In this document: piece by piece, positions 1 through 36,580 of the stretch
How positions within the stretch are numbered: position 1 is the stretch's first letter
Layout: the number at the start of each line of letters is the position of its first letter
Origin: a virus
DNA length: 41,602 nt
Reading direction: 5' to 3' (one strand)
Virus record (IMG/VR): IMGVR_UViG_3300038466_000012
Coordinates: 1-41,602 of that record
Notes under the pieces: model-generated
What the model saw: only the letters and a program-made list of their open reading frames with translations
Database searches by the model: none
What the model was told of the DNA's origin: nothing
Position numbers and translations under genes: made by a program

Positions 1-88
1 CTGTTGGCGAATCACCAACACCCTGTTGGCGAATCACCAACACCCTGTTGGCGAATCACCAACACCCTGTTGGCGAATCACCAACACC
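1..88. repeat. Iteron array, 4 perfect tandem copies of the 22-bp unit CTGTTGGCGAATCACCAACACC
   Basis: Units at 1-22, 23-44, 45-66 and 67-88. Each unit carries the inverted repeat TGTTGG-N7-CCAACA. The array lies inside the initiator reading frame. Confidence 0.9.
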
Positions 89-2397: not shown

Positions 2398-2415
2398 CTG
2401 CGGCAGGAGTTGACG

Positions 2416-3708: not shown

Positions 3709-3710
3709 TT

Positions 3711-15538: not shown

Positions 15539-15988
15539 ATGCTGGTACGGTACGCTGATATGGTGCGCAATTCAAAATCGGCGAAGAGGCGGGACTGCGC
15601 CTCGTGCGACCGCGAGCATAGCAAATGCCTGCTGAGCGGGAAGCCGTTCGATGTGGCCCTTCCGGGGCGTCCGGGGCTGGGCCGCTTCACCGTGCGCGAC
15701 CGGGCGGATATTCCGGCGATGATTACCTGGGCGCGCCGGAATGACGCCCATGCGGATCTGCCGGAGTTTGCAATCATCCGGGAGTTGGGTATTTGCCCGC
15801 TGCCGCTGTTTACCACGCTGAGCGCGGAGTGTATGCGGCTGTACCAGCACTGCCAGGCGACGAATGATTTCTCTATTGTCGAGGGAAAATACTACGACCA
15901 GCCGGCGTTTTACATGGAGTCGATGCATTTGATTGCGGCGGAAGAGGCGGTGATACGTTCCGAGAAGCAGGAGGGAGACAATGGCTAA
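15539..15988 (+). CDS. Tail assembly chaperone T segment (expected as a GT fusion; its own ATG is also present)
   Basis: 149-aa ORF in the -1 frame relative to G. It ends 8 nt into the tape measure gene. Confidence 0.6.
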   Translation: MLVRYADMVRNSKSAKRRDCASCDREHSKCLLSGKPFDVALPGRPGLGRFTVRDRADIPAMITWARRNDAHADLPEFAIIRELGICPLPLFTTLSAECMRLYQHCQATNDFSIVEGKYYDQPAFYMESMHLIAAEEAVIRSEKQEGDNG

Positions 15989-18460: not shown

Positions 18461-20905
18461 ATGCTGACGACAACTGGTGACTATAACGAATATGCGCGGC
18501 GCACTGTTGGCGGTGCGGTGTATGTGGTTACAATTCAATCTGCTTCTGGCATGTATGCGTTTGCTGATAGAGTAATTGCCAATTCCAGCGATACATTCAC
18601 TGTGGATGTGCTTGATTTAATTGTTGGGGATGTTGTTATTTCAGAAAAATGTGATATCATAAGCCGCACATGGGCTGATGCTGAGGCGACGTTTACCATA
18701 GATAACAGTCCTTTTTTTAGAGCTTCATCGTCGGCGGACGACGGGCGGCTGTTACGTCCATCGGATGTTTTGGGTGACTGTTATCAAAGGTCGTGCGCGA
18801 TATATTTATTAATTGGCGGGATAAGCGCGAGTGTCATCACGTTGTTCTCCGGGGTGATTAGTGAATATCCGGCAATAGATGAATCTGAGATGCAGTTTGT
18901 TGCTACGGTAAATGCAGCGGCATTAAACAAAAAAGTCCCGACCACGGTAATAACAAAGGCAACCTACCCCAATGCTCCCGTGTATTCGATCAACCGTACA
19001 ATGCCCCGCGTGTATGGGTATTTTTCGGAAGAGCAGTTTCTTAATCACGGCGGGTTAATTCCTTGTGAGCAGATCGATACCAATAAATGGGCGGTCTGCA
19101 GCTCCGGTCAGGGATTCAACAGCATTGATGCGGTTTGGGTTTACTGTGATGGGTTAGGGATGTGGGTCAAACTCTATGATGATTACACAACGTATTTATC
19201 GCCGACAGGTGTTAGTTGGGTGCGGCTGGATTATATCTATCCGAAGGCATATGCTTACATCTATCCCGATTCCGGGGTCGATAATAATACTGACACGCTG
19301 CCGAATACATTGTCGCCGAATATAACAGATCATCGTGGTCTGTATCTCCAGCCGGACGGCTATCAGACATACTATTCCATGACTGCCGGGAAAGGGCCTG
19401 GGATATCGACGACCGGCACAAAGGCGGCCCGGATCATTTTGCTTTGGACAAAAGTTTTTGAAAAAGATGACAACAGCGCCACTCTTTACGGGACAAAGAT
19501 CGGACAGATTATAACGCCGACATCTGAAACCGATTTAGAAAATACGGCAGCTTTAGAGTATCATTTCCATTTTGCAACAGGGAAATCAAATGCGGACAAC
19601 GGTACGTATGGGATGCAATTCTATACAGCATACTCTGCTGGGGTGTCTACCGCAAGTAACTTGTGGGAGGAGATATCTATTCAGCGGGCGCACGTTGTTG
19701 ATGCCGGGACTGTCTATTGGAAGCGGACATATCTTGACACATACCATTCAGCGCAGGATTTGGCCGAGCAATTACGCTGGCATTTTGGCGACGGTATGGT
19801 TGACAGTGCATGGTACGGTAATGCTTACGGGGTCGTATTTGCCTTTCAGGTTGCGGAAGCAGCATCAGACGGTACTGAGATTGGTCGGCTCTATGAAGCG
19901 CGGCTGCGCATACCATTTCGGATGAAGCTCGGTGCGCATCCATTCCCAATAATGGTTGGGCCGTACTATAAGTACAATGAGAATATCCGCGTTGCTGTAG
20001 AGTGTTCCGGGGTGAAATACTCTGCTTCTATGTTAAATGCTCCGCGACTTAATCCGAGCGGCCATACGACAAGCGAGGTGATAACGTCGCCGATATATAT
20101 TATTGAGGATATTCTCAAGAACGTGTGCAGTATGACGTATGATACCGCGTCATTTGACAACGCCGAAACATACCTGCCGGTGATTAATGGTTCGGCCCCG
20201 CGACGCATGTGCGCGCACATGGCGGTGCTACACGGGGAAAAGCAGAAGACGGCAAAGGAGTATATTATCGAACTGTTGCGGCAAATCCCTTACTCTATGA
20301 CCGTTAACGCTATCGGACGCCCGCGAATGATGACCATGACGGGGAACGCATTTCTGTATACAACGGCAACAGAAATTGCCGCCGCAGATATTGACCCGGC
20401 ATCGTTCATGATCGCCAAGACACCAAGTAGCGACGTGATCAATTCTCTTACCGTATCGCATATGCGGCGACCGCACGACGGACAAATGTCTTTTGTTCAC
20501 ACGCTCGATGATACGTCAAGTCAGTCAACCTATGGGATTCGGCAAATGGAGGGCGAGCTTGAGTGTGATTACATCGGCGGCGGTGGGAGTTATTACAACG
20601 ATTTTCTTTCGGCGACGGTGTTTAGAAATTGGTTGACTGATAAGCTGTTGTCATATTACAAGCACGGCAAATTTTTCTCTGCACCCAAGTACATCGTCGG
20701 CATGTTCCTCCCCGGCTGTAAGTGGATGCACCTGGAACTTGGGGACTATATTAAGATCGACCCGGCGATGGATGAGCACATGAAGTTGTTCGGCGTGTCG
20801 TGGGGGGACACGACGCATGACGCGAAGGCGTTTATGATCGTGGAGATCGTCAAAACTATACAGGGCGTGCGGATCGTCGCAATGGACCCGCTGGCCGATG
20901 TATAA
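18461..20905 (+). CDS. Tail tip / Tal-like large tail protein
   Basis: 814 aa, following the Dit-like gene. The 5' two-thirds have clearly lower GC than the flanks. Confidence 0.5.
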   Translation: MLTTTGDYNEYARRTVGGAVYVVTIQSASGMYAFADRVIANSSDTFTVDVLDLIVGDVVISEKCDIISRTWADAEATFTIDNSPFFRASSSADDGRLLRPSDVLGDCYQRSCAIYLLIGGISASVITLFSGVISEYPAIDESEMQFVATVNAAALNKKVPTTVITKATYPNAPVYSINRTMPRVYGYFSEEQFLNHGGLIPCEQIDTNKWAVCSSGQGFNSIDAVWVYCDGLGMWVKLYDDYTTYLSPTGVSWVRLDYIYPKAYAYIYPDSGVDNNTDTLPNTLSPNITDHRGLYLQPDGYQTYYSMTAGKGPGISTTGTKAARIILLWTKVFEKDDNSATLYGTKIGQIITPTSETDLENTAALEYHFHFATGKSNADNGTYGMQFYTAYSAGVSTASNLWEEISIQRAHVVDAGTVYWKRTYLDTYHSAQDLAEQLRWHFGDGMVDSAWYGNAYGVVFAFQVAEAASDGTEIGRLYEARLRIPFRMKLGAHPFPIMVGPYYKYNENIRVAVECSGVKYSASMLNAPRLNPSGHTTSEVITSPIYIIEDILKNVCSMTYDTASFDNAETYLPVINGSAPRRMCAHMAVLHGEKQKTAKEYIIELLRQIPYSMTVNAIGRPRMMTMTGNAFLYTTATEIAAADIDPASFMIAKTPSSDVINSLTVSHMRRPHDGQMSFVHTLDDTSSQSTYGIRQMEGELECDYIGGGGSYYNDFLSATVFRNWLTDKLLSYYKHGKFFSAPKYIVGMFLPGCKWMHLELGDYIKIDPAMDEHMKLFGVSWGDTTHDAKAFMIVEIVKTIQGVRIVAMDPLADV

Positions 20906-20928: not shown

Positions 20929-21180
20929 ATGGGCGCAGAAGTAGTTGCAACGATCACCGTGGTTGTGTTTCTCCTGGGGATACTGATCGGGAACCAGGCG
21001 ACGAAAGTCAATACGCTCAGTCTGACTTTGGACGGCAAGATCAATATGGTAAAGACCGATACGGACAAGCGCCTCTCGCAAGTCGAGGCGGATATGAAGG
21101 AATATCGGGGCAACATGGCGGCAATGGCTGCCGACATCCGGGAAATTAAAACGCTGGTCAGCCGGGAGTACAAAACATGA
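20929..21180 (+). CDS. Small N-terminally anchored coiled-coil membrane protein (paralogue 1)
   Basis: TM segment VVATITVVVFLLGILIG is followed by a coiled coil. It shares DGKINMVKT / DAKIDTVKT with the next gene. Confidence 0.6.
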   Translation: MGAEVVATITVVVFLLGILIGNQATKVNTLSLTLDGKINMVKTDTDKRLSQVEADMKEYRGNMAAMAADIREIKTLVSREYKT

Positions 21181-21560
21181 ACCCGCAGCAAAAGAAAACA
21201 AGCTTAAACCTGAATTGGGTAGCGACCGGCTTGATAACGATACTGGTGTTTATCGGCGGGGCATTAATCAATGCGCAAAACAAGCTGGATGATAAGATGG
21301 ACGCCAAGATCGACACGGTGAAAACTTTCCAAGACGCGAAGATTAAGGAATGCTTTACGGCGACAAAGGAGAACGCCGACAGCATTGTCGAGTTGAGGGT
21401 GGCGCAGGCGGAGATTCGGACTGAGATGAAGTATGCCAACGAGAAACTTGACCGGATATTGAACTACCTGGACATCCCGATTCCGCGACGGGTTCCGCCG
21501 GTGACCAATTTGCAGGGCCGGGCCAGTGCGGTAGATAGTACAGGAGATTCGATGCGATGA
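21177..21560 (+). CDS. Small N-terminally anchored coiled-coil membrane protein (paralogue 2)
   Basis: TM segment WVATGLITILVFIGGALI is followed by a coiled coil. ATGA overlaps join it to both neighbours. Confidence 0.6.
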   Translation: MNPQQKKTSLNLNWVATGLITILVFIGGALINAQNKLDDKMDAKIDTVKTFQDAKIKECFTATKENADSIVELRVAQAEIRTEMKYANEKLDRILNYLDIPIPRRVPPVTNLQGRASAVDSTGDSMR

Positions 21561-23944
21561 AGTGGTGTCTCACAATTCTCCTCTTGTTGTTCGCGGTCGA
21601 GGCGTGGGCGCAAGACCTTACGCCGTCGATCAATACCACGTCCTACGTCTGTGGGGCTGACGGTAGTTGGGATGACGGCTACTGTTGGGATATGCTGGAT
21701 ATTGTGGAGCAGTATATCGGCTGGTCGGATGGTTCGTTGAATTGTTCGACCGATCCCGATTGGGCCGATTCTGTTCGGGCGCACGGGGCCGGGATCAGGA
21801 TGTACAACTACGCGACGATCAAGGGGGCGTGGGCGCAACGATATGGGGACACGTCAGGATATTCCGTGGGCCGGTTGTTGTTTTTCCCGGCGACCATGCT
21901 CTATAATATCTGTGCCCGCCGCTGGCCGGACTCGGCGGGGAATATGTATGAGCGACTCCACGAACATTATCAGGACAGCGTTGTATTTATTCATGGCGCA
22001 AATTACGTCCTATGCCCTCCGGCCGATGAAGATGCCGACGGTTTGATTGAAGCCGTGGACAGTTGTGCGCGAGTGATTTATTACATCAACGAGTATGCGT
22101 ACAGCGCGGAGGAAGTCGGCTACCGGGGAACAACCTGCAAAAAGGCGACGGGCAAGGGGCGCGTTCTCTATGCCATGAATGAGCCGTGGCAGCGGGAAGT
22201 CATTGCGGAGTATTTTCAATTCGCCTGCACGACGACCAGCGTGACGTTCTATTGTGATGGTGGGCCGCCGTACGACATTTATCTGGACAATGCCGACCAT
22301 GGCAACTCGCAAGTCCGGGGACGGCAGGACGACGCCAGCGGGGATCAGTTGGGGTCAATCGCTTCGAGTTGGGAAGCTCCCGACGACAGCAACGATATTG
22401 CCACTGGCGATGACTGCAACTGGTCGCCGTGGAAACACCAGCAGATGATGATTACTCTACAGGTGATCCGCGATTCAGTTGAATCAATCGGTCATCGGCT
22501 GTCAATCAATGTCGTGTACGGTACGCCATTGTCATACTACTACGACGTAGATACCGGGAGCGGTAACCTGTTCAACCCGGCGCGAATCCAGTTGAATGAG
22601 GAACGCATGGGCAGTTACGGGATAATGACTGCAAATAATTATGCCGGGTTATATCTGCCGACGCGGGTTGCCGACATAGAATCATGCGCGGCCAAAAACA
22701 TCCCCGTCAATTGGGATTCGTGGAATATCGTTTATACCGGGACGGCCAGCACGGAGCCGACCGTGCCGACCGGGTTCACCGGGATCGCCGAGTACATGAA
22801 TTACAATTCAATGTGCGCCTACTATCTGGCAAAACCACAGGCGACTGCCGACGACACGTTGTTTTGGATGTCGTTTAACGTGTCGTCATGTTCGGTGTGT
22901 GACCCTGTGACGTTGTGGTCGGGGGGCCACTGGTCGGACGCGATGGGGATAGATGTTGGCGTTCCTGATGCGCCGATGTTCACGGCATATACCGGGCCAT
23001 GCGATGACGGGGTTGCTCGCGGGGTAGAACCGGACTTGACCCGCATCTTCCGCCGGGATTATAACGATACCGGCTTTATGGTCTTATACCAGCCGTGCTG
23101 GGAATACTCCGATCATCCATATAACGTTCTCGGCGATTCGGTCTATGTGACGTATGACCCGCTGGACGTGGATACGATGTGGATGTTGCTCGGCGACGGG
23201 ACGTATAGCGATCCGATGCTGTCGGTTGACCTGCCTATTGGCTGCGGGGTCGTGCTGTTGACTTCGGGGAGCAACGGCTATGTGCCGGAAGAATCCGGGG
23301 TGACGGCGGTTGTGTTCGGCGGGACCGGGGCGGATTCGTCACTACTGGATGACGGGTTTATCAGTTATTTCGAGCAGGATTCACTCTATGGGATAGATAC
23401 CCTGGGCAATTACTTACGGATGTACGCCCACAACGACGTATACCCGCCGCCGTTACACGTCTCTTTATTGATTCCAGATTTGACGACGCTCCGGGCAATT
23501 GACGACACCCTCGACCGGGCCGTGTGGTATGGTTACTTCCCGTCGGGACAAGTGAGCGCCGGGGATTATTTCACGGCGTACTGTCTTGAGACTGATATCA
23601 CCTGGGACAATGTGACGTTTCCTTCTCGCAATCGGCCAAAGTCGGGATCGTATTGGGCAGGCGGCGGAGACTTTTCCTATCTCGATTTGGCGGGGGGCGA
23701 CGATACGGCAGACTTCGACATGAACATCTCCATGCCGTGTAGTGATTCGCTTGTGATAACCGGGCTGATGCAAAAGCTGAAGGATTCGACAACCTACGAG
23801 GGAATAGTATTTTGGATGCAGGACGATGATGCTTACAATTATATTTATTCACGTCAGGTTGAACATCCCGACACGCCGGATTCAATCGTTGTCTGGTACA
23901 GCGCGGATGAAACGACTTCCCGCAAGGTGAGGGTGCGGCGATGA
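21557..23944 (+). CDS. Secreted 795-aa protein; possible TIM-barrel glycoside-hydrolase-like core and DNRLRE-like C-terminal domain
   Basis: Signal peptide MKWCLTILLLLFAVEAWA|QD. ..NEPWQREVIAEYF..YDIYLDNADHG.. resembles the GH114/GHL-type pattern. The C-terminus ..ITWDNVTFPSR..YSRQVEHPDTPDSIVVWYS resembles DNRLRE domains. Both domain calls are tentative. Confidence 0.55.
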   Translation: MKWCLTILLLLFAVEAWAQDLTPSINTTSYVCGADGSWDDGYCWDMLDIVEQYIGWSDGSLNCSTDPDWADSVRAHGAGIRMYNYATIKGAWAQRYGDTSGYSVGRLLFFPATMLYNICARRWPDSAGNMYERLHEHYQDSVVFIHGANYVLCPPADEDADGLIEAVDSCARVIYYINEYAYSAEEVGYRGTTCKKATGKGRVLYAMNEPWQREVIAEYFQFACTTTSVTFYCDGGPPYDIYLDNADHGNSQVRGRQDDASGDQLGSIASSWEAPDDSNDIATGDDCNWSPWKHQQMMITLQVIRDSVESIGHRLSINVVYGTPLSYYYDVDTGSGNLFNPARIQLNEERMGSYGIMTANNYAGLYLPTRVADIESCAAKNIPVNWDSWNIVYTGTASTEPTVPTGFTGIAEYMNYNSMCAYYLAKPQATADDTLFWMSFNVSSCSVCDPVTLWSGGHWSDAMGIDVGVPDAPMFTAYTGPCDDGVARGVEPDLTRIFRRDYNDTGFMVLYQPCWEYSDHPYNVLGDSVYVTYDPLDVDTMWMLLGDGTYSDPMLSVDLPIGCGVVLLTSGSNGYVPEESGVTAVVFGGTGADSSLLDDGFISYFEQDSLYGIDTLGNYLRMYAHNDVYPPPLHVSLLIPDLTTLRAIDDTLDRAVWYGYFPSGQVSAGDYFTAYCLETDITWDNVTFPSRNRPKSGSYWAGGGDFSYLDLAGGDDTADFDMNISMPCSDSLVITGLMQKLKDSTTYEGIVFWMQDDDAYNYIYSRQVEHPDTPDSIVVWYSADETTSRKVRVRR

Positions 23945-24528
23945 AGAAGCTCTTGCTGCTGTTGTTCCTGCTGGTGCCGTCGGTCGCCGGGGCGGAGGTG
24001 TTCGGGAAGCAGACCGTGGAAACTGCCGGGCGATTGTCGATTGAAGCGACAACGTGTTGGGGATCGTTTCATTGGTATGATGCTTCAGGTAAGCAGCTTG
24101 ACAGCTTGACCGTTTACATACAGAACGAGAGCGTGGCGCGGAATATTCGCGTTGCTTTATTCAAGCGGACTTCTTCGACGACGTGGACGCTGGTTGACTC
24201 CGCTATTGAGAAAAGCGTTCCGGTTGATACTGATTGGGTTTCATTCCCGGCAGTCAACAATGCGATATTAGAAAACGGTTGTTATCGTATTCAAGCATGG
24301 GCACAAGCGGGGACAAACGGTATCTACGTTGTCTATGGCACGGGGTCGGCTTTAACAGACTCGGTGACGAGTGTCGCATTCAGTGGGTATGATGGATATA
24401 ACTGGCCTGCTACGTTGTCCGTTGGCACGCCGTATTATTACGACATTTCAGCATACGCAACAATATCAGTTCCGCCGGAAGGATCAACGAGTTCACGTCG
24501 TCGTCGGATAATCGGAGGTTCACAATGA
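23941..24528 (+). CDS. Secreted 195-aa beta-rich protein
   Basis: Signal peptide MKKLLLLLFLLVPSVAGA|EV. ATGA overlaps at both ends. Confidence 0.6.
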   Translation: MKKLLLLLFLLVPSVAGAEVFGKQTVETAGRLSIEATTCWGSFHWYDASGKQLDSLTVYIQNESVARNIRVALFKRTSSTTWTLVDSAIEKSVPVDTDWVSFPAVNNAILENGCYRIQAWAQAGTNGIYVVYGTGSALTDSVTSVAFSGYDGYNWPATLSVGTPYYYDISAYATISVPPEGSTSSRRRRIIGGSQ

Positions 24529-27500
24529 ACGAGTATACAAAGGTCAAAATAATCATCGCCGTTTTGATTACGGGGATATTGCTGTGTGTCTTGCCGTTTG
24601 CCTGCAATCAGGCAAGGGCCGGAATCCATAACAACAGTGCGGCAGATTCAGGGGAAGATACTGTTACGGTGACTTTCTCCCTGTTGGATACATTGGGCCA
24701 ACCGACACTTGCGGTAACGGGTGATTCTGCAATCATCTTTTACTTGAATCCCACGGGGGCAAAAAGCGACTCTATGAGAATAGATATTGCCGCCAGCGCA
24801 ACGACGACGAAAACACTTCTCGGCGGAAAAACAATTATTACGTATACCTATCCTCAATTGGTCGCTAATATTGATGATATTTGTGCGACTTGCAATGGTG
24901 TGTGGCGGTGGAAGGTATATGCCATTGACGAAGATTTAGATTTGGTGAGCTATTTTACCGACGAGTTCCAAGTCAACACAGGGTGGAATTTATCCGACTC
25001 GGCCATTGTTGACGGGTCGAGTTTTGCGTCATTGGACAACGCGATTGACGTGGGAGTCCTTGCTCAAAACTGTATCGGCACAGACGAAACAGGAGCGGGT
25101 TGTATAGATAGCTTCGCAATATCCTTCAACGCAAAGGTGGCCCTTGCCAATTTTATTTTTGGCTTTAACGACACCACGAAATTAGACACGTCTAAATTTG
25201 GTGCGTGGTTAAAGACAAACATCGGTACGCCGGGGCAAATATGGGGAGCGAACGACACCGGGGTCGTGGACACATCCAAGATCGGCGCTTGGCTGAAAAC
25301 AAACATCGGGACTCCGGGGCAGATATTCGGCACAAACGACACGTCGATCATCGACACGTCGAAACTCGGAGAATGGTTGGCATCGAATATGTCTATCGAT
25401 ACCGATGAGTTGACCGCCAAGGTCGATACCAACGTGTGGGAAACAAAGCAGGTTTACAACACTCTCTCCGCCGAGGACTGGACGAATCACTTTTTCCAGT
25501 ACGACGACGGGATATTGTTCTCCAACTGCGATACGATTACCGACTGGACATTTGAGCATGGCGGCAACGGGCGCATTGACGAAGAATACACCTTCAAAAA
25601 AGAAGGTGACGCCGGGGTCCATATCTGGACTGGCGACGGCGACACGGCGGTAATTTATACCACGTTGCCGACGTACTCGACAGGACGCCCACGGATACCG
25701 CACTTGTCAAATATCACCTTTGATTTGTACATCGACACGAATACCTTCTATCGGTCGCCGCGCTGCGTGAGCTACGCTGACAGCGCGTCAAGTCTACATT
25801 ATCTCAAAGTGATGCTGAGCCGCAATCTTGAGGACGGGCCGTTCAACACGACGACCGGCGGGTTTATGCAATACCTATTCCTCGATCAATCACTTGTTTC
25901 CGGTTGGCAGACTGTGACGGTGCCGGTACAGGGCATGGCTGAAATCGGTGACGCGGATTCATGCGATATTGATTTGGCGAATAAATATATCGGGTTCGAG
26001 GTCGGTGTTGATGGTGCTGGTGATTCGGTTTCAATCGTCATTGACAATATCAGGTTCAATGAGCGCGGACGAGCTAAGGTGATCTTCCGTTATGATGACG
26101 GCCTGATAAGTCAGTATACTCGTGCTTGGCCGTTGCATCGGAAATATCACCAGCGGGCAGCGTTTGCCGTGCGCGGCAATGACATATTGGGTGTTGGCGC
26201 AACAGACATGCACAAAGCCGAATTGGATGAAATTTATGCTGGCGGCAATGATATCATCAACCACGGGTGGAACGCACTGGCGCTTATCGACGTGACAGAT
26301 TCCACTGCGCGGATTGGAATTGACAAGGGGCAGCAGGTATTGCTTGATCTTGGCTACCCTCGTGGGGCGGGAGTATTCGCGCACGCGTCAAATTCGATTG
26401 ACACTATCGGGCTGAGGATCGTAAAGGAAAATCACCAGTTTGCTTGTGGCGGGCGGAACTCAATTCACCGGGGGCACGTTGATGTTATCACCGACCCGAC
26501 CGCCGATGAATTGTACAACTTCCCATACGTGTATATGGAGTATTCTGAGTCGGAAACAATGGACAGATACCGCCGGATGATTGACACGGCGATCATGCAG
26601 GGGAGCTTGTTGATCTTGTCCATGCACGACATTTGCAGTGCGGACAGTGCCAACGGGTCAGATGGTGCAGATATTTCAACGAACGTCGATTCGCTTGACG
26701 CCTTGTTGAGTTACGTCTATGACCTCCGGGCCAGCATCGACGTGACGACGTTCTCCGAGTATTTCAGTCACCAGCGTACATGGTCGGCGCAGTTGAATAC
26801 CATTGAGGATAACACAGATGAACTGAAGGACTCTGTGAAAACCCTCGACAACTGGATATGGGCGTTACGTGATTCGCTTGCTCTGGCCTACGCCGACCTC
26901 GACGCGATAGCCGATGGTGAAGTTGCTGACGGCGCATTGGATTTCGGCGGGGAGATTGACACTACCGGTCTGGGCGCGGCACCGTGGGCGCACGGCACGA
27001 AGGCCCTGACTGATAAATCCGGGTTCGCCCTGACCACCCAGGACTGGACGACCGATGCGGACTTGTTTTTGACTGCTGCCGGGGAAGATTCACTCTCGGT
27101 CCTTGTGAATAAGTTGATCTTACAATTGGACAGCGATTCCTTGCAAACATTGATGCAGGCGGTTATTGCCGGGGCGATTGCCGGAGATTCCGATGGGACG
27201 GCAATTCAGCGGCTTGCTTGGCTATGCCAGCAGGAGTATATCGACAGTGCAGGTCTTGTGGCCGGGGTGTGGGATGTAGATTCCTCGGCAGCGTTTGTCC
27301 TTGCCGGGGGAACAACGGCGACACTGTTGACACGGGCGGCAGCAGGGGGGGCGGCGGCATCATCACCCTGGACGGTTGCTGGTGTTGATTCGATGATTGA
27401 TATGTCGCTCGTTGTTGCAAAAGAGGCATCGGTAACGGCAGTACGCGATTCAATGGACGAAGCGGCGCAAGTTGCCGACGTGTCCGCTCTCGCGCTCGAA

Positions 27501-29600
27501 GCGTCCATAACCGCCATCCGAGATAGTTTGGACGAATGTGTGACCGCAGATGTTTCCGCTCTCGCGCTTGAGGCCAGTGTGACGGCTGTTCGGGACAGCA
27601 TGGATGAGGCCGCACAGGTAGCGACCGGCTTCTCCACTCACTCGGCGGCTGACGTGTGGGCGGTCGGGACGCGGACGTTGACCGCACTCGATGAGGACGC
27701 GACGACCATTGACTTGAATGCGACGGCTGTTGGGTCGGTGGCTGGCGGCGTTGGGTCGGTGACGGGGAGCGTCTTGGGTAATGTCAATGGGTCGGTCGGA
27801 TCGGTGACGGGGAATGTAGGCGGATCAGTCGCGTCGGTAACCGGAGCGGTTGGTTCCGTGACCGGAAATGTCGGCGGAAACGTAACCGGTTCCGTTGGGT
27901 CAGTTGTTGCAGCAGTTAATGTCGGATCGGTCAGTGGCAGCACACCGGCAGCGGATACTCTCGAATTGCGGATGTTGCGCAAGGCGCCGATATCCGGCGT
28001 AACCGAAGGAGTTGATCTTAAAGTTGCTTCCCCCGGATATGTTGGTGTAAATTGGGGAGATATCTATCTGCCGTCGTCCACAGTTTCTTTATCAAACACA
28101 ACAATAAAGGCGGTGGCCGAATTGTCCGCAACGTATCATCCTGGAGCAATTGCGGCCCACGTGCACGATACTCTAAATGCTCGCGCCGATGTCCCGGTGA
28201 ATGCTACGCAAATCAGCGGCAGTGCTGCGGCGGCGGATTCGGTTGAGCGTCAAATTCTTACCGGCAGAATTTTGGCCGACGTAAAGGCCCTCGACGGTGA
28301 CACGCTATCACTCGAAGATTTGAAGGATTTCGCCGACGACGGCTATGACCCGGCGGGCGATACGGTGCATACCGACATTGCGCTGGCCGGGAGTCTGATT
28401 ATCAGCGACGCTGATATGGGCCACGTTGCCGATTCGGTCTGGCAGAAGAACCGAAATGACGTAACAAAAAATGATGGGATGTATGGGAAATTGCTGGACA
28501 CCACCACCACGTCACGGGCAACGACCGGCACCAGTGTAACCGATGCAGATATGGTTGCCATTGCCGATACAATCCTCAATCGCAAGAGCTACCAGCAGAC
28601 CGACACGACAACCGTCGGCGGTCGGATTCATGCGTTGGGCGATTCGTTAATCAGTCAGGAGTGGGCGACCGCTGGGGCAACCGACGTGAGCGACGGGGAT
28701 ATGATTGCCATTGCGGATACCGTGCTCGGCCGCAAGGCGCACCAAAAAACGGATACGTCTACCGTCGGCGGGATCATCCATGCCATAGGTGATTCACTTA
28801 TCAGCCAAGAGTGGGCCACGTCCGGCGCGTCGGCGATCAGTGATGCAGACATTATTGCAATCGCCGATACTGTACTCAATCGCAAGAGTCATCAGCACGA
28901 TGACACCACGACTATCGGCGGTAAAATTCACGCGATGGGCGACTCCCTGAGTACGCAACTATGGGCAGGGTCATCGTACGGCAGCGGGCTACAGGTGGAC
29001 AGCATTTTCGTCTACGATTCATCCGGGACGGATACCCCGGTTCCCGGCGTTTCGGTCACGATCAAAAACGCGGGGATGACCGCCGACGTGGACTATGGGA
29101 TCAACACCAATTCGTCGGGCTATGTGACCTACAACCTCAATGCCAGCACAGCGTACAAGGGCGTATGTGCGGCACCCGGATACACGTTCCCGGTCTCAAG
29201 TTTCACCACGGGGGCCGGGGCGACCAACAACGATACCGTTTGGGGGTACAATATCACCGTCAGCGCACCGGATGACGCCGATCTCAAACGGATTTACGGC
29301 TGGATCAAGGACCTGTCGGACAGGGCACTGTCCGGGGCGATTGTCTCGCTTTCCCTCGACGTGCCGCATGATTCGATCCCGTGCCTGACCGGGACGGGCG
29401 TCACGGTCTACCGCACGGCAGTCCTCGACACGACCGACGCCAACGGATACTGGCAGCTGGATATCTATCCGACCGACGCGCTCACTCCGGCGGCCTGTAC
29501 CTATCAGTATCGGGCGACGTATAACAACGAGTATTTGCGGTGGCACAAGAAAACATTCTCGCCGACGGGGACAACATCACAACCGATCACGGACTATTGA
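24525..29600 (+). CDS. Giant 1691-aa repeat-rich fibre/surface protein with N-terminal anchor, CE4 polysaccharide-deacetylase-like core and C-terminal carboxypeptidase-regulatory-like beta-sandwiches
   Basis: N-terminus KIIIAVLITGILLCVLPFAC. NodB-like motifs are VIFRYDDGLISQY, INHGWN and LLILSMHD (nt ~26070-26640). There are four internal tandem-repeat blocks. The C-terminus has ..VPGVSVTIKN..NSSGYVTYNL.. and ..GAIVSLSL..DANGYWQLDIY... Confidence 0.75.
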   Translation: MNEYTKVKIIIAVLITGILLCVLPFACNQARAGIHNNSAADSGEDTVTVTFSLLDTLGQPTLAVTGDSAIIFYLNPTGAKSDSMRIDIAASATTTKTLLGGKTIITYTYPQLVANIDDICATCNGVWRWKVYAIDEDLDLVSYFTDEFQVNTGWNLSDSAIVDGSSFASLDNAIDVGVLAQNCIGTDETGAGCIDSFAISFNAKVALANFIFGFNDTTKLDTSKFGAWLKTNIGTPGQIWGANDTGVVDTSKIGAWLKTNIGTPGQIFGTNDTSIIDTSKLGEWLASNMSIDTDELTAKVDTNVWETKQVYNTLSAEDWTNHFFQYDDGILFSNCDTITDWTFEHGGNGRIDEEYTFKKEGDAGVHIWTGDGDTAVIYTTLPTYSTGRPRIPHLSNITFDLYIDTNTFYRSPRCVSYADSASSLHYLKVMLSRNLEDGPFNTTTGGFMQYLFLDQSLVSGWQTVTVPVQGMAEIGDADSCDIDLANKYIGFEVGVDGAGDSVSIVIDNIRFNERGRAKVIFRYDDGLISQYTRAWPLHRKYHQRAAFAVRGNDILGVGATDMHKAELDEIYAGGNDIINHGWNALALIDVTDSTARIGIDKGQQVLLDLGYPRGAGVFAHASNSIDTIGLRIVKENHQFACGGRNSIHRGHVDVITDPTADELYNFPYVYMEYSESETMDRYRRMIDTAIMQGSLLILSMHDICSADSANGSDGADISTNVDSLDALLSYVYDLRASIDVTTFSEYFSHQRTWSAQLNTIEDNTDELKDSVKTLDNWIWALRDSLALAYADLDAIADGEVADGALDFGGEIDTTGLGAAPWAHGTKALTDKSGFALTTQDWTTDADLFLTAAGEDSLSVLVNKLILQLDSDSLQTLMQAVIAGAIAGDSDGTAIQRLAWLCQQEYIDSAGLVAGVWDVDSSAAFVLAGGTTATLLTRAAAGGAAASSPWTVAGVDSMIDMSLVVAKEASVTAVRDSMDEAAQVADVSALALEASITAIRDSLDECVTADVSALALEASVTAVRDSMDEAAQVATGFSTHSAADVWAVGTRTLTALDEDATTIDLNATAVGSVAGGVGSVTGSVLGNVNGSVGSVTGNVGGSVASVTGAVGSVTGNVGGNVTGSVGSVVAAVNVGSVSGSTPAADTLELRMLRKAPISGVTEGVDLKVASPGYVGVNWGDIYLPSSTVSLSNTTIKAVAELSATYHPGAIAAHVHDTLNARADVPVNATQISGSAAAADSVERQILTGRILADVKALDGDTLSLEDLKDFADDGYDPAGDTVHTDIALAGSLIISDADMGHVADSVWQKNRNDVTKNDGMYGKLLDTTTTSRATTGTSVTDADMVAIADTILNRKSYQQTDTTTVGGRIHALGDSLISQEWATAGATDVSDGDMIAIADTVLGRKAHQKTDTSTVGGIIHAIGDSLISQEWATSGASAISDADIIAIADTVLNRKSHQHDDTTTIGGKIHAMGDSLSTQLWAGSSYGSGLQVDSIFVYDSSGTDTPVPGVSVTIKNAGMTADVDYGINTNSSGYVTYNLNASTAYKGVCAAPGYTFPVSSFTTGAGATNNDTVWGYNITVSAPDDADLKRIYGWIKDLSDRALSGAIVSLSLDVPHDSIPCLTGTGVTVYRTAVLDTTDANGYWQLDIYPTDALTPAACTYQYRATYNNEYLRWHKKTFSPTGTTSQPITDY
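25185..25391 (+). repeat. In-frame 84-bp (28-aa) tandem repeat, about 2.5 copies
   Basis: DTSKFGAWLKTNIGTPGQIWGANDTGVV / DTSKIGAWLKTNIGTPGQIFGTNDTSII / DTSKLGEWLASNM, starting at 25185, 25269 and 25353. The copies differ mostly at synonymous positions. Confidence 0.9.
27423..27623 (+). repeat. In-frame 72-75-bp tandem repeat, about 2.7 copies
   Basis: EASVTAVRDSMDEAAQVADVSALAL / EASITAIRDSLDECVTADVSALAL / EASVTAVRDSMDEAAQVA. Confidence 0.9.
27727..27946 (+). repeat. Low-complexity Gly/Ser/Val/Asn repeat (GSVTGNVGG-like nonamers)
   Basis: VGSVAGGVGSVTGSVLGNVNGSVGSVTGNVGGSVASVTGAVGSVTGNVGGNVTGSVGSV... Confidence 0.85.
28404..28980 (+). repeat. In-frame ~150-bp (45-50-aa) tandem repeat, 4 copies
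   Basis: Units start at 28404, 28539, 28689 and 28839. Consensus: (S/T)D(A/G)DM(I/V)AIADT(I/V)L(N/G)RK.HQ..DT(T/S)T(V/I)GG.IHA.GDSLISQEWAT.GA. Confidence 0.9.
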
Positions 29601-29601
29601 G

Positions 29602-29994
29602 ATGGGCGACCTGAGTAAAAACTTTGCGACCAGTGAGTTTCGCTGTCATTGCGGGTGTGAGCGGATGCAGGCCGATCCGCGCCTGCTGGCCGGGCTGGAG
29701 AAATTGCGCTCATTCATCCAGCGGCCGATCACAATCAACAGCGGGTTCCGTTGCCCGGCGCACAATGCAACTGTGGGTGGGGCGGCCAACAGTCAGCACG
29801 TGCTCGGGCGCGCGGCGGATATCACCGCTGAAAACTACACTCCATCGGAGCTATTTGTCGTCGCCGAGCACGTTCTCGAATTTCGCAATGGCGGGATCGG
29901 TATCTACCCGCTCGATGGATTTCTCCACGTCGATGTCCGGCAGGGGCGCGCGCGGTGGGGCTTGGATAAATTACTGAAAACGAAGGAGGTTTGA
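29602..29994 (+). CDS. Endolysin, peptidase M15 (zinc D-Ala-D-Ala carboxypeptidase-like) family
   Basis: Motifs SGFRCPAHN, SQHVLGRAADI and GFLHVD. No signal peptide. The gene starts 1 nt after the fibre gene stop. Confidence 0.85.
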   Translation: MGDLSKNFATSEFRCHCGCERMQADPRLLAGLEKLRSFIQRPITINSGFRCPAHNATVGGAANSQHVLGRAADITAENYTPSELFVVAEHVLEFRNGGIGIYPLDGFLHVDVRQGRARWGLDKLLKTKEV

Positions 29995-30204
29995 ATGAGC
30001 AAACTCCCGACCGATTCAGTCACGTTGATCGGGCTGATTGTGGTCTGTGCCAGTTTCGTCATCCCGCTGTGCATGGGAGTGACGGTCGCAGACCTGAAGG
30101 AGCTGGGCTTGGTCCTCAGTCCAGTCATCACTGGTTTTTTCACCTACCGGGGGTCAAAAATGACGCAAAACGGCAACGGAACAAAACCGCAGGAGGTAAA
30201 GTGA
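29995..30204 (+). CDS. Holin, two transmembrane segments
   Basis: 69 aa with TM1 VTLIGLIVVCASFVIPLCMGV, TM2 LGLVLSPVITGFFTY and a charged C-terminus. RBS GGAGG. It directly follows the endolysin (TGAATG). Confidence 0.7.
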   Translation: MSKLPTDSVTLIGLIVVCASFVIPLCMGVTVADLKELGLVLSPVITGFFTYRGSKMTQNGNGTKPQEVK

Positions 30205-30734
30205 AACCATTAAAGATCATCTTACTGGCCGCGATCCTGGCGGCCCTGATGTATCCCAACTGCATGGCGCAATGGGTTGCCGAACCGTCGGCGGTTGTCG
30301 GCGGCGCATTCATGGGCTTCGACCATAAAGTCCCCTACGGCGCGACGAAATACAGTTGGTTCGGTTTTTTCACGGCGGTCAAAACTGCCGAGGTCATCGA
30401 CGGGCGTATCTGGTGGTACAACGGCATCCAATATGGCAACGCGATATACCCCGGCGCCGCGGATAATTGGGGCGGCAATGCCCGGCTGGTATTCAAGGGA
30501 CGCTGGCCGGGATCGTATTTCTGGATCAGCTCCGGCTGGTATGATCACATTGCCGAAAAGGGAACTGATTACGAGTCCGGCCTGACGGTGTACGCCGGCG
30601 GATCCTACGATCTCGGCTCCGGGTTTAACCTGATGGGCGAGTACGGCTGGTCGGACCGGGGACCGGCGTTTCATTCCGAGGTCAAAATCGGCGTCGGTCT
30701 GGACGCCTGGGATTTGCTCAAAAAGAAAAAATGA
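30201..30734 (+). CDS. Exported aromatic/Gly-rich beta-strand protein (outer-membrane-barrel-like)
   Basis: GTG at 30201 follows GGAGG and overlaps the holin stop (GTGA). Signal peptide KIILLAAILAALMYPNCMA|QW. Alternating patterns such as GLTVYAGGSYDLGSGFNLMGEYGWS are present. There is no canonical lipobox and no terminal aromatic residue. Confidence 0.55.
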   Translation: MKPLKIILLAAILAALMYPNCMAQWVAEPSAVVGGAFMGFDHKVPYGATKYSWFGFFTAVKTAEVIDGRIWWYNGIQYGNAIYPGAADNWGGNARLVFKGRWPGSYFWISSGWYDHIAEKGTDYESGLTVYAGGSYDLGSGFNLMGEYGWSDRGPAFHSEVKIGVGLDAWDLLKKKK

Positions 30735-30742
30735 GGTGAGCC

Positions 30743-30952
30743 ATGAAATACGTTTTGATCGGGCTGATAATCGCGGCGGTGTTGATCGTGATCCGTGGCG
30801 CTGGCGGGGATGACCAGCCGCAGTTGTCGCAGCAGATTGAATTGCAGGGACCGCAGCAGGTAATGCAGCTCGTATTGATTCCCGACGGGGACGCCGTGCC
30901 GTTTTGCAGTCCGCTCCGGGGCTGTGTCGGAGGCCATTGGGAGCTGCTATGA
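30743..30952 (+). CDS. Small N-terminally anchored membrane protein
   Basis: 69 aa with TM YVLIGLIIAAVLIVI. RBS GAGGTGAG. An ATGA overlap joins it to the patatin gene. Confidence 0.55.
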   Translation: MKYVLIGLIIAAVLIVIRGAGGDDQPQLSQQIELQGPQQVMQLVLIPDGDAVPFCSPLRGCVGGHWELL

Positions 30953-31761
30953 GGGCACTGGTATTGTCCGGCGGCGGGGCGAAAGGCGCGTTCGAAGCCG
31001 GGGTATGTCTGGAGCTGGCCGCGGCCGGCCGGGACTACGACCTGATCGTCGGGGTTTCGACCGGCGCGCTGGCCGCAGTAGTGCTCGGCCAGGATACGTT
31101 TGCCGAGGCCGCCGAGCGGTTGCGCGCCCACTACCAGGCGATCCGGGGGCCGTCCGACGTATACCATTCCCGCTCGTTGTGGGGCAAAATCCGGGGCGGG
31201 CTATACTCCCCGGCGCCGCTCCGCAAAAAGATCGAGACCGAGGTTGCCCGTGGGAAATGGCAGCGGCAGGTGGCCGTGGGCGTGGTCGATATGCGATCGG
31301 GGGAATTTAAGACCGTCGGCCCGGACGATCCCTGTTTCGTCGATTATGTGCTGGCCTCGTGCAGTTTCCCGCCATATTTTCCGCCGGTTAAAATCTGGGG
31401 GCGGCCATACATGGACGGCGGCCTGCGCAATATCGCGCCGCTGGCAACGGCGATACAGGCCGGGGCGTCGTACGTGGATATGATTCTGGCGAGTCCGGCG
31501 ACGGTCGACGAGTGGCCGGGGACCGGCTGGACGTGGGATATCGCGGGCCGGGCGATCACCGTCGCCGTCAACGAGGTCTACCGGGACGATATGACGTACA
31601 GCGGCTATGCGGATATCCTGAGGTACGAGCCGTCGGTCGCCGACTGGCGGCGGCTGTACGGCAACATCCCGTATATCGGCACGCTGGAGTTTGACCCGGC
31701 CCAGATACAGCGGGCGATTGAGTATGGCCGGATTGCCGGGCACAAAATTTTGAGCGTTTGA
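30949..31761 (+). CDS. Patatin-like phospholipase
   Basis: 270 aa. Oxyanion motif SGGGAKGAFEAG, nucleophile elbow GVSTG and catalytic Asp motif MDGGLRN are all present in the canonical order. No signal peptide. RBS GGGAG lies 5 nt upstream. Confidence 0.85.
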   Translation: MRALVLSGGGAKGAFEAGVCLELAAAGRDYDLIVGVSTGALAAVVLGQDTFAEAAERLRAHYQAIRGPSDVYHSRSLWGKIRGGLYSPAPLRKKIETEVARGKWQRQVAVGVVDMRSGEFKTVGPDDPCFVDYVLASCSFPPYFPPVKIWGRPYMDGGLRNIAPLATAIQAGASYVDMILASPATVDEWPGTGWTWDIAGRAITVAVNEVYRDDMTYSGYADILRYEPSVADWRRLYGNIPYIGTLEFDPAQIQRAIEYGRIAGHKILSV

Positions 31762-31795
31762 CCTGCCCTGTGGTGGGGCAGCATCCTCCGTGGAC

Positions 31796-31832
31796 ACCCC
31801 GTCGGGCCGCATCCCCGACGGGGTTTTATTTT
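31796..31832 (+). terminator. Rho-independent terminator ending the late/lysis operon
   Basis: ACCCCGTCGGG (31796-31806), loop CCGCAT, CCCCGACGGGGT (31813-31824), then TTTATTTT. Confidence 0.8.
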
Positions 31833-31943
31833 GCCCGGCGGCTGCGCCCGCTTGCGACTGCGCGACGATAATTTCCCCGGCGACCACAGGGCCAATAAAA
31901 AGATCGTCGCTGTACGGGCATTTCTCGCGGTTTTTGGGCTGGT

Positions 31944-31970
31944 CAACCGTTAAGGATTTCTTAATGGTTG
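31944..31970. promoter_or_regulatory. 11-bp inverted repeat, candidate operator
   Basis: CAACCGTTAAG-GATTT-CTTAATGGTTG with one mismatch. It lies ~70 nt upstream of the early promoter in a 360-nt non-coding gap. Confidence 0.45.
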
Positions 31971-32003
31971 CAAGTCTGTGCGTTGTAAATGCTTGGTGGG
32001 AAA

Positions 32004-32065
32004 TTGAAAATAAATTGAAAAAATATTGAAAAAAAGCTTGACAAATGTTAAACTAATCGTATCTT
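32004..32065 (+). promoter_or_regulatory. Early promoter with phased A-tract/TTGAAAA upstream element
   Basis: TTGAAAA occurs at 32004, 32015 and 32026 (11-bp phasing). TTGACA (32038-32043) is followed by a 16-nt spacer and TATCTT (32060-32065). The first early gene starts at 32122. Confidence 0.6.
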
Positions 32066-32121
32066 GCGGTCGATAAAAATAGCAGGCCGCGGCAATAACG
32101 CCGGGGCAGAACGGGGGAAAA

Positions 32122-36144: not shown

Positions 36145-36580
36145 CACGCAAGACCTGATTCTTGAGTTTGGTAAAAAACATCGGGGCGAGAGGGTACAGC
36201 GGGTCGTTGCCAGTTATCTGCTGTGGATGGTCAACGAGCTTGAACAGGAGAACCCGTGGCGAGCGATTGCTGAGGCCGAACTCAAGCGGCGCGGGACAGT
36301 ATTGCCGCAGATAGATATTTCCGGCCATGCGATTGATCGGGCGTCGCTCAATCCAAAAGTGCGCGCAATCTGGCATGAAACGTCTAACCCGGATGAGGGG
36401 CTTCATGCGTGGCTGGTGCGTGCGGGGCAGGAAGCGCGGATCACCGGGCTTGTCGAAAAGCAAGGTGACGATGAAGTCGCCTACTATGGCGGGATCAAAT
36501 GGGTGTTTGAACTCGGCAACAACTGGCCGACACTCAAGACCCTGATGCCGAAAGAACGGAGAGATACCGATGACCAGTAA
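36134..36580 (+). CDS. Hypothetical protein, N-terminus DUF3820-like
   Basis: The ATG at 36134 has better RBS spacing than 36125. ..LEFGKKHRGERVQRVVASYLLWMV.. resembles the FGKHKG..YL.W motif. Confidence 0.5.
   Translation: MPTDTQDLILEFGKKHRGERVQRVVASYLLWMVNELEQENPWRAIAEAELKRRGTVLPQIDISGHAIDRASLNPKVRAIWHETSNPDEGLHAWLVRAGQEARITGLVEKQGDDEVAYYGGIKWVFELGNNWPTLKTLMPKERRDTDDQ

Follow-up and report, generated by a model that had tools for sequence, protein, structure and literature searches.

Single late phage proteins that are exported through the host Sec system are known already. In phage lambda, for example, Lom, which carries a signal peptide at its N-terminus, is encoded between the tail genes J and stf (PMC12309495). 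The present work concerns a block of five consecutive genes, here named the cassette, at positions 20929-29600 of the IMG/VR virus record IMGVR_UViG_3300038466_000012; the whole stretch of DNA that was analysed, 41,602 nucleotides (nt) long, is referred to as the window (W). The cassette directly follows the putative tail-tip gene (Tal) of a siphophage-like genome, and all five of its products begin with a predicted signal peptide or membrane anchor. Like lambda Lom and Bor, Cor of phages phi80 and N15, and Llp of T5, these products are predicted to be Sec-targeted and are encoded beside siphophage tail-tip or fibre genes, and Lom is comparable in size and composition to a protein of 177 amino acids (aa) encoded among the lysis genes of the window. 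However, Lom, Bor, Cor, and Llp are products of single small moron genes, often expressed in lysogens, whereas the cassette and its counterparts consist of three to five consecutive genes that fill the slot after Tal and include genes for proteins as large as 795 and 1691 aa. In further contrast to these morons, to which no sequence homology was detected, the cassette is translationally coupled to the late genes and conserved across its clade.

A second group of described systems is formed by endolysins exported by Sec or signal-arrest-release (SAR) sequences, such as Lys44 of Oenococcus phage fOg44, Lyz of P1, and R of phage 21. Exported endolysins, a subject of the review PMC6116005, make Sec export of late enzymes an established phage strategy. 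Like the cassette products, they are late phage proteins that reach the envelope via host Sec before lysis, but the endolysin encoded in the window has no signal, and its exported proteins are large and of carbohydrate-active type or of unknown function rather than peptidoglycan hydrolases. The P22 tailspike, gp63.1 of phage G7C, and the Vi-antigen deacetylase tailspikes resemble the cassette in being encoded after the tail-tip genes, in bearing enzyme modules for surface glycans, and in their mosaic, fast-evolving fibrous organization; unlike the cassette products, they have no signal peptides and are assembled in the cytoplasm, and no homology between the cassette and any phage fibre was found. 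PgaB and PelA, which are periplasmic CE4 deacetylases of exopolysaccharide pathways, combine a signal peptide with a CE4/NodB-type domain acting on periplasmic polysaccharide, and the 1691-aa protein resembles them in pairing a predicted signal peptide or anchor with a CE4 domain. A short stretch of the 1691-aa protein matches the NCBIfam PgaB model (E=2.6e-4, far below cut-off), but only the generic CE4 domain is shared, and the surrounding 1,400 residues have no counterpart in PgaB or PelA.

No report of signal-peptide-bearing tail fibres was found in a full-text literature search. A multi-gene, clade-wide exported cassette in the tail-fibre slot, together with a signal-peptide protein in the slot of a capsid decoration protein, appears to be undescribed. 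Tailed-phage particles are thought to be assembled wholly in the cytoplasm, and annotation pipelines treat the absence of a signal peptide as a hallmark of virion proteins. Whether or not the products are virion components, searches for receptor-binding proteins or host-range determinants that filter out signal-peptide proteins would miss genes of this type.

Export signals were called by a rule-based sequence scan of the n-, h-, and c-regions. A Sec signal peptide cleaved by signal peptidase I was defined by a positive n-region, an uncharged h-region of 7-15 residues, a polar c-region, and small residues at positions -3 and -1; an h-region of at least 18-20 residues without a cleavage site was regarded as an anchor, and one with a conserved small-x-small site as cleavable. 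An earlier note on this DNA had stated that each product after Tal begins with a hydrophobic segment, and this holds for all five genes between 20929 and 29600, none of which has the signal-free N-terminus expected of a protein assembled in the cytoplasm. The same note had counted seven consecutive proteins of this kind. Only five are consecutive, although the other two exist and also have predicted signal peptides: one is a 179-aa protein in the head module at 10094 (..APVSA/GW, the slash marking the predicted cleavage site), conserved in three relatives, and the other is the 177-aa protein in the lysis operon at 30201 (..NCMA/QW).

The layout of a Sec signal peptide is present in the 795-, 195-, 179-, and 177-aa proteins. 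The first two contain the signal peptides that had been described as textbook examples (..AVEAWA/QD and ..PSVAGA/EV), a description borne out by their n-h-c layout and small -3/-1 residues. The n-regions of the four proteins are MK, MKK, MKR, and (V/M)KPLK, and their predicted cleavage sites are AWA/Q, AGA/E, VSA/G, and CMA/Q. The h-regions comprise 12-15 residues in the 795- and 195-aa proteins, and the uncharged stretch 22-24 residues in the 179- and 177-aa proteins. Homologues of the signal-peptide proteins keep the same layout. Across the proteins with a predicted export signal, the h-region is uncharged and the n-region carries a charge of +1 to +3, with the 83-aa protein (-1) as the exception. 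In the 1691-aa protein and the giant proteins of three relatives, the h-regions are of about 18-20 residues, and small-x-small sites occur at residues 31-33 in all four (ARA/G, CRA/D, AKA/G, and AHG/T). Every start codon of these proteins is preceded by a GGAG- or AGGAGG-type Shine-Dalgarno motif. In addition, a run of at least five among the 11 N-terminally hydrophobic genes of 56 was rare under permutation within the window (p of about 0.006). It appears that these N-termini are genuine export signals under selection, not hydrophobic stretches that arose by chance.

Several other features of the termini were considered and rejected. Leaderless isoforms were discarded, as no Shine-Dalgarno-supported in-frame start occurs just past any signal peptide. 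No canonical lipobox of a lipoprotein signal was found in the exported proteins, and no NCBIfam match pointed to a type IX secretion system (T9SS) or other C-terminal sorting domain. A targeting motif could have been seen in the basic C-termini of the 795- and 195-aa proteins, but these tails are encoded just where the next, overlapping gene has its Shine-Dalgarno sequence.

The pattern was also followed in related phages, a comparison that the earlier note had suggested. Eight metagenomic contigs whose Tal is 21-49% identical to that of the window were collected by a Tal homologue search and pattern scans. Hydropathy was counted in W and seven of the eight relatives, contig L001, whose context is unknown, being counted apart; cassette genes were those from Tal to the endolysin gene or the contig end, and core genes those from the terminase to Tal. 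A strict N-terminal hydropathy test was passed by 21 of 23 cassette genes versus 0 of 47 core virion genes (Fisher p of about 1e-14, computed with 20/23), and the export pattern is therefore conserved. By pairwise comparison, the cassette genes fall into many mutually unrelated families. Because the signals are common to unrelated families, export itself, not one inherited protein, appears to be selected, and any gene residing in the slot after Tal appears to carry a signal.

The diversity of the N-termini also bears on the suggestion that they serve another role. It could be supposed that the hydrophobic segments are not export signals and that the proteins are ordinary cytoplasmic fibres, in which a phage protease would remove the segment, or the segment would form a helix for assembly or trimerisation. 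Virions could then be assembled by the usual cytoplasmic route, but a common docking helix should be conserved in sequence, whereas the segments are diverse, belong to many unrelated families, and yet share a uniform, canonical n-h-c layout with small -3/-1 residues; no single conserved docking helix is seen. The Cys-rich, acidic mature domains also fit extracytoplasmic proteins. N-terminal sequences of this kind are expected to engage the signal recognition particle (SRP) or SecA. This explanation is regarded as highly improbable.

The cassette is part of one late transcript with the tail and lysis genes, because neighbouring genes from 21177 through 30204 overlap by 4 nt (ATGA or GTGA) or abut, and no strong internal promoter or terminator was detected in the cassette by a scan with the sigma-70 consensus, which may not be that of the host. 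The sole strong terminator lies at 31796-31824, just 3′ of a gene for a patatin-like phospholipase. The GC content of the cassette is similar to that of the flanking genes, and the marks of a moron gene (own promoter and terminator, atypical composition, and sporadic distribution) are absent.

This organization is of importance for the view that the cassette consists of lysogenic-conversion or superinfection-exclusion genes, which would be expressed by the prophage and would modify or mask the receptor glycan or block DNA entry. Examples of such genes are Bor, Cor, Llp, HK97 gp15, and the O-antigen-modifying cassettes beside tailspike genes. Whereas three relatives (L002, L003, and L004) carry an integrase gene just 3′ of the patatin gene, W has no integrase among the open reading frames (ORFs) scanned, and all its genes lie on one strand. 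Genes of this class are often linked to tail-tip or tailspike genes (as is Lom; PMC12309495), and the small anchored protein after Tal is kept even at 21% Tal identity, which fits co-evolution with the tail tip; however, the cassette is found at one place throughout the clade and not sporadically, it has no promoter or terminator of its own within the late operon, where its genes overlap, and its GC content is the same as that of its flanks. A periplasmic deacetylase could modify glycan precursors, but the fibrous 795- and 1691-aa proteins are unlike known exclusion factors, and no PADLOC match was obtained. Such a role is considered distinctly unlikely. A reading of the block as a defence system was likewise rejected, as there was no PADLOC match apart from the lipase.

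The products themselves are largely without described relatives. The 795-aa protein is acidic and contains 20 Cys residues; its homologue has 23, and a beta-helix protein of L008 has 17. The Cys content of these three proteins is 2.5-3.8%, versus 1.2% in core virion proteins, which fits folding outside the cytoplasm. The 795-aa protein is a near-orphan, with only two relatives among 1.84 billion representative proteins and one in a word-indexed search, and searches of Pfam, PHROG, NCBIfam, PDB, and 50,697 phage genomes gave no match to it. In its 67%-identical homologue (P0002), the signal peptide is retained as MRRLILTLILLTFGVNAWA/TD. The 195-aa protein has a homologue of 197 aa in L002 and one of 201 aa in L001, both of which also begin with a signal peptide. 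A 228-aa protein of L008, which weakly matches DUF4082, shows weak profile similarity to the 195-aa protein (hhalign E=6e-4). Members of the 195-aa family, like this weakly similar counterpart in L008, are encoded directly 5′ of the giant gene in W and L002. As judged from these similarities, the 195-aa protein is probably a lectin or jelly-roll-like (DUF4082-like) module.

The 1691-aa protein contains the only cassette domain with an above-threshold family match, a CE4 polysaccharide deacetylase (Polysacc_deac_1, PF01522; 25.9 and 27.3 bits against a cut-off of 23.1), which is also annotated in the giant homologue of L002. The complete CE4 motif set consists of DD, H-x-x-x-H, R-x-P-Y, and LxHD; by eye, RYDDG and LSMHD are present, and H-x-x-x-H is seen as HGWNA, without the second His. 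The giant proteins of L002, L005, and L008 are all homologous to the 1691-aa protein in a mosaic manner. Its N-terminal 150 aa resemble L008, its core resembles L002 (50% over about 820 aa), and its C-terminal 200 aa resemble both, while only the L002 homologue was found in the protein search. Searching the 50,697 phage genomes with the 795- and 1691-aa proteins by tblastn gave only weak matches to the CE4 domain and no tail-fibre homologue, and the fibre half of the giant protein had no translated match in them.

With these data, the cassette is tentatively regarded, at a confidence somewhat below even, as a Sec-exported, hypervariable set of envelope- and glycan-processing proteins that is not assembled in the cytoplasm. 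The cassette would be made late, coupled to the tail and lysis genes, and its products would be moved across the inner membrane by host Sec. The 795- and 195-aa proteins, and probably also that of 1691 aa, would be cleaved by signal peptidase I, whereas the two small coiled-coil proteins would stay anchored with the N-terminus inside and the C-terminus outside (N-in/C-out). The exported proteins would fold under the oxidising conditions of the periplasm, would bind glycans of the envelope or act on them, and would be released as free factors once holin, endolysin, and patatin break the envelope. Around the lysing cell and the cells next to it, they might then strip or modify capsule, exopolysaccharide (EPS), or receptor glycans, so that progeny would not be trapped and the receptor for the tail tip would be exposed. 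The signal features, their conservation, the operon structure, the domain matches, and the mosaicism are observed; that the proteins are in fact exported and cleaved, are missing from the virion, act on these substrates, and thereby benefit the phage is inferred. If this were true, a fifth of the genome would encode hypervariable enzymes that are exported, stay outside the virion, and prepare the host surface for phage exit, and the clade would point to an under-appreciated release biology and be a source of new glycan-active enzymes.

Several observations agree with this proposal. The recognisable modules of the cassette are carbohydrate-acting or -binding (the CE4 deacetylase, and weak beta-helix and DUF4082-like matches in relatives), as would fit envelope- or EPS-remodelling enzymes made late. 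The earlier note had offered just such enzymes as one possibility, and both the location in the late operon and the above-threshold CE4 domain fit it. The anchored coiled-coil family resembles PHROGs of lysis membrane proteins, and in L005, a holin homologue lies upstream of the cassette, so that lysis genes flank it on both sides. No cassette protein matches a known tail-fibre family or any of the 50,697 phage genomes, and no match to a tail-fibre, tailspike, or baseplate family was found in PHROG, Pfam, NCBIfam, or PDB.

On the other hand, a number of points weigh against free exported enzymes. The cassette occupies 8.7 kb, or 21% of the genome, in the slot that holds the receptor-binding protein in Dit-Tal siphophages, directly downstream of Dit and Tal in the late operon and in the same order in the relatives that span the region, and no other fibre candidate was found in the genome. 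Tal is conserved along its full length among relatives with differing cassettes, which places host recognition more plausibly in the cassette. Tail fibres typically show traits such as the fibrous repeats of the giant protein, its mosaic modules with conserved termini, and its phage-restricted, near-orphan family. The free-enzyme model also leaves unexplained why the head module, at the position of a decoration protein, stably retains a gene for a signal-peptide protein. Moreover, an enzyme merely released at lysis does not strictly need a signal peptide, and export and cleavage are predicted here by sequence rules.

Many of these points speak for a different explanation, in which the exported proteins are virion add-ons that mature in the periplasm, the cassette encoding fibres or receptor-binding depolymerases and the 179-aa protein being a capsid decoration protein. 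Assembly would be divided between two compartments, with the cytoplasm as the site where the core (capsid, connector, tube, Dit, and Tal) is built, while the accessories would be exported by Sec and folded in the periplasm, where disulfide bonds are possible. Docking would occur only after holin has opened the inner membrane with the outer membrane still closed, and patatin and an outer-membrane-protein-like factor would rupture the outer membrane afterwards. The canonical receptor-binding-protein position with coupling to Tal, the variable and mosaic cassette beside a conserved Tal, a giant protein that joins fibrous repeats to an enzyme domain as tailspikes do, and the lack of another fibre candidate are all in line with this idea. 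So is the finding that signals occur only in the decoration slot and after Tal, and in 0 of 47 core proteins. The endolysin has no signal peptide or SAR domain, and holin must therefore make holes that let protein pass; the presence of a lipase in place of a spanin pair could prolong the stage at which the outer membrane is intact.

However, no precedent among tailed phages was found in the literature searches, and fibre and tailspike proteins are stated to lack signals in two papers, one on the P22 tailspike (bioRxiv 10.64898/2026.09.13.751334) and one on target proteins of phage diversity-generating retroelements (DGRs), including tail fibres (PMC6199706). Attachment would also have to be efficient within a short time window. 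The N-terminal type of the giant protein (W with L008; L002 with L005) does not co-vary with Tal (W with L002; L005 with L006 and L008), which is not expected of a docking domain. AlphaFold2 models of the 795-aa protein (2-sequence alignment, mean predicted local distance difference test, pLDDT, of 26.8) and of Tal (6-sequence alignment, 38.3) were unusable and provided no structural evidence. Periplasmic maturation is regarded as the foremost alternative, although as rather unlikely; if it were true, the textbook view of phage assembly would have to be revised.

The 179-aa protein of the head module bears on that explanation. It occurs with a signal peptide at the same position in L002 (64%), L005 (41%), and L008 (31%), its start at 10094 has a good ribosome-binding site, and its gene diverges about as fast as its structural neighbours, which is in line with a virion component. 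It has no match in Pfam, PHROG, PDB, or the phage genomes. The 98-aa gene that follows it (window 10663-10959) is tandemly duplicated in L005 (2206-2487 and 2498-2779) and could encode a small head accessory protein.

The first two products of the cassette (83 and 127 aa) are small anchored coiled-coil proteins. That they are paralogous, as the earlier note had proposed, was confirmed by 33% identity over 67 aa (E=9e-5). A member of this family follows Tal in seven of the eight relatives; in L008, only a 40-aa transmembrane (TM) ORF is found there. The family alignment shows a common C-terminal DS..DTT-like tail, which is conserved in the 127-aa protein together with a predicted type-II (N-in/C-out) topology and one periplasmic Cys. 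The layout of an inner-membrane spanin (i-spanin) subunit is present, in that a KK or K n-region is followed by about 20 hydrophobic residues and these by a charged, helical region, although the 83-aa paralogue and the L006 member have an n-region with a net charge of -1. The family also gave weak matches to coiled-coil Pfam families and to XhlA (0.01).

It has to be asked whether the whole block is lysis machinery, in which the anchored coiled-coil and signal-peptide proteins would form an envelope-spanning or envelope-degrading complex in place of spanins. Members of the family in relatives match PHROG 10340 (holin/antiholin, 3.5e-8) and PHROG 739 (Rz-like spanin, 5e-4 and 2e-3), but compositional bias is likely, and such matches may stem from the composition of TM and coiled-coil segments, not from homology; in the window itself, the 83- and 127-aa proteins gave only marginal PHROG matches (E of about 6e-3), to families of unknown function. 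The type-II topology, the single periplasmic Cys in four of eight members, the holin homologue beside this family in L005, and the presence of a signal peptide or TM segment in all products from Tal to patatin, except the endolysin and patatin, would suit such a complex. The genome contains no canonical outer-membrane spanin (o-spanin), which also suits this view, but a partner gene is missing: no ORF with a lipobox was found in or beside 20929-21560 or among the lysis genes, and the genes downstream encode signals of signal peptidase I type. In addition, large hypervariable proteins of carbohydrate type are superfluous to any known lysis step. For the block as a whole, this explanation is considered very unlikely.

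For the two small proteins taken by themselves, the most likely role is that of membrane proteins in the lysis module, of i-spanin, antiholin, or XhlA type. Like Rz, the T4 antiholin RI, and XhlA of PBSX, they join an anchor to a periplasmic coiled coil of about 60-100 residues. Unlike Rz, they have no o-spanin lipoprotein, are linked in every relative with the 3′ end of Tal and not with the endolysin, and are duplicated in the window. XhlA is arranged in the opposite way, with the TM segment at the C-terminus instead of the N-terminus.

Downstream of the cassette, the endolysin lacks an h-region and any export signal in the rule-based scan. The holin-like protein is 46% identical to the 65-aa product of the L005 gene that lies directly after Tal and upstream of the L005 cassette. 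The 177-aa protein has counterparts with signal peptides at the same position in L002 and L008 and no family match in Pfam, PHROG, or NCBIfam; going by its composition, it may be an outer-membrane beta-barrel-like protein. The patatin-like phospholipase is 67% identical to a counterpart at the same position in L002 (18506-19318), and it also resembles lipase effectors of defence systems, including the cyclic-oligonucleotide-based antiphage signalling system (CBASS), at 7e-13 in NCBIfam and 7e-14 in PADLOC. As no canonical spanin pair was found in the window genome, patatin may be the factor that disrupts the outer membrane. No paper linking patatin to a phage lysis cassette was found in a full-text literature search, and this spanin-less set of lysis genes is a second lead, on how the outer membrane is breached.

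Two N-terminally hydrophobic late ORFs exist beyond the original seven, 29995-30204 and 30743-30952. The latter encodes 69 aa, has a good ribosome-binding site and an N-terminal TM segment, overlaps the 5′ end of the patatin gene, and lacks a counterpart in L002; the ORF may be spurious, or its product may be an additional membrane protein for lysis. The endolysin has been exchanged among close relatives: where the window has Peptidase_M15, L002 (17362-17784) and L008 (17611-18087) encode an unrelated protein of about 140-158 aa. Right after the patatin gene, a tyrosine integrase is encoded on the opposite strand in L002 (19548-20624), L003, and L004. At this place (31762-32121), the window has a terminator and a short gap instead, and the phage may have lost lysogeny.

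Table 1. Positions and predicted products of the window and the corresponding gene order in related contigs. A slash marks a predicted cleavage site.
Genome	Position (nt)	Strand	Feature	Description
Window	2410-3708	+	ParB-like nuclease/DNA methyltransferase fusion	432 aa; directly 5′ of large terminase; PHROG 498 at 4e-92
Window	3709-5781	+	Large terminase	PHROG match
Window	5766-7802	+	Portal	PHROG match
Window	7936-10068	+	Prohead protease-major capsid ORF	710 aa; matches head-maturation-protease and major-head-protein PHROGs
Window	10094-10633	+	179-aa protein	Directly 3′ of protease-capsid gene; MKRFLILIALAALVVAASTAPVSA/GW; predicted Sec signal peptide, residues 1-24, VSA/GW
Window	15981-17573	+	Tape-measure protein (TMP)	PHROG tape-measure matches
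Window	18461-20905	+	Putative Tal (tail tip)	814 aa; no N-terminal hydrophobic segment; upstream boundary of cassette
Window	20929-21180	+	83-aa protein	Anchor and coiled coil; hydrophobic segment VVATITVVVFLLGILIG; hydropathy 2.97 at residue 6
Window	21177-21560	+	127-aa protein	Anchor and coiled coil; KK, then 20-residue hydrophobic segment
Window	21557-23944	+	795-aa protein	Starts MKWCLTILLLLFAVEAWA/QD; predicted Sec signal peptide, residues 1-18, AWA/QD
Window	23941-24528	+	195-aa protein	Starts MKKLLLLLFLLVPSVAGA/EV; predicted Sec signal peptide, residues 1-18, AGA/EV
Window	24525-29600	+	1691-aa protein	Starts MNEYTKVK-IIIAVLITGILLCVLPFA-CNQARA/G; 18-residue h-region; predicted signal peptide or signal anchor, residues 1-32; Ig-like and repeat modules after N-terminus
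Window	26070-26348		CE4 polysaccharide-deacetylase domain of 1691-aa protein	Residues ~516-700
Window	28542-28945		Repeats of 1691-aa protein	Fibrous Gly-rich short-period repeats and three ~50-aa tandem repeats (150-nt spacing)
Window	28971-29597		Conserved C-terminal domain of 1691-aa protein	~200 aa
Window	29602-29994	+	Endolysin (Peptidase_M15)	Pfam PF08291 1e-22; PHROG endolysin 3e-36; downstream boundary of cassette
Window	29995-30204	+	Holin-like protein	69 aa; two TM segments
Window	30201-30734	+	177-aa aromatic-/Gly-rich protein	GTG start behind AGGAGG; MKPLKIILLAAILAALMYPNCMA/QW; predicted Sec signal peptide, residues 1-23, CMA/QW
Window	30949-31761	+	Patatin-like phospholipase	Last gene of late operon; Pfam Patatin 4e-28
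L002, L003, L004, L007, L009			Genes after Tal (~37-kb contigs, many samples)	115-aa anchor and coiled-coil protein; 197-aa signal-peptide protein; 1314-aa CE4 protein (anchor/signal peptide)
L002-type contigs			Genes downstream of these	Lysin; holin; 177-aa signal-peptide protein; patatin; integrase
L005			Genes after Tal	Holin homologue; 107-aa anchor and coiled-coil protein; 142-aa signal-peptide protein; 256-aa signal-peptide protein; anchored protein >830 aa
L008			Genes after Tal	40-aa TM protein; 546-aa signal-peptide protein (weak Beta_helix); 228-aa signal-peptide/TM protein (weak DUF4082); 802-aa anchored protein
L008			Genes after 802-aa gene	Holin; lysin; 188-aa signal-peptide protein
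L006, L011, L015			Genes after Tal	Anchor and coiled-coil protein; signal-peptide protein; contig end
L012			Gene after Tal (21% identical)	Anchor and coiled-coil protein
L001			67%-identical homologue of 795-aa protein	Signal peptide kept; preceded by two more signal-peptide proteins

The window is a complete, circular siphophage-like genome of about 41.5 kb. Its first and last 88 nt are identical, which indicates a circular assembly, and all credible genes are on the + strand. Apart from the genes with PHROG matches in Table 1, a head-tail adaptor was recognised by PHROG match, and the fusion of protease and capsid is backed by the Pfam annotation of the L002 homologue (Peptidase_S78 plus Phage_capsid). 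The labels Tal and Dit are positional, given by TMP being followed by a Dit-sized gene (295 aa) and then by the 814-aa gene. The earlier description of a Tal-like gene followed by a place where tail fibres are expected hence agrees with the gene order, but the identity of Tal and Dit found no support in Pfam, PHROG, or PDB searches, nor did Tal have a translated-search match in the 50,697 phage genomes. In the early region, outside the late operon, the ORFs 36570-36932 (120 aa) and 40426-40863 (145 aa) also have strong N-terminal hydrophobic segments.

With regard to its relatives and host, no nucleotide match to the window was found in the 50,697 phage genomes, its proteins had no entry in the contig index searched, and the best matches of portal and capsid to cultured phages in translated searches, at about 28% identity, were to phages of unrelated hosts. 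The phage belongs to a clade of previously undescribed siphophages without a cultured relative. Among the 185,579 species genomes of GTDB, no prophage was found with the profile of Tal or that of a conserved 162-aa protein of the head-to-tail region. Given the ribosome-binding sites in the window, the host appears to be a Shine-Dalgarno-using bacterium, and Shine-Dalgarno use argues against Bacteroidota. The short signal peptides, together with the outer-membrane-protein-like and lipase genes, indicate that it is probably diderm.

The terminal 88-nt match (window 1-110 and 41471-41602) is built of tandem 22-nt units, CTGTTGGCGAATCACCAACACC, each of which contains an inverted repeat GTTGG...CCAAC, and this structure suggests an iteron or operator array of about seven units.

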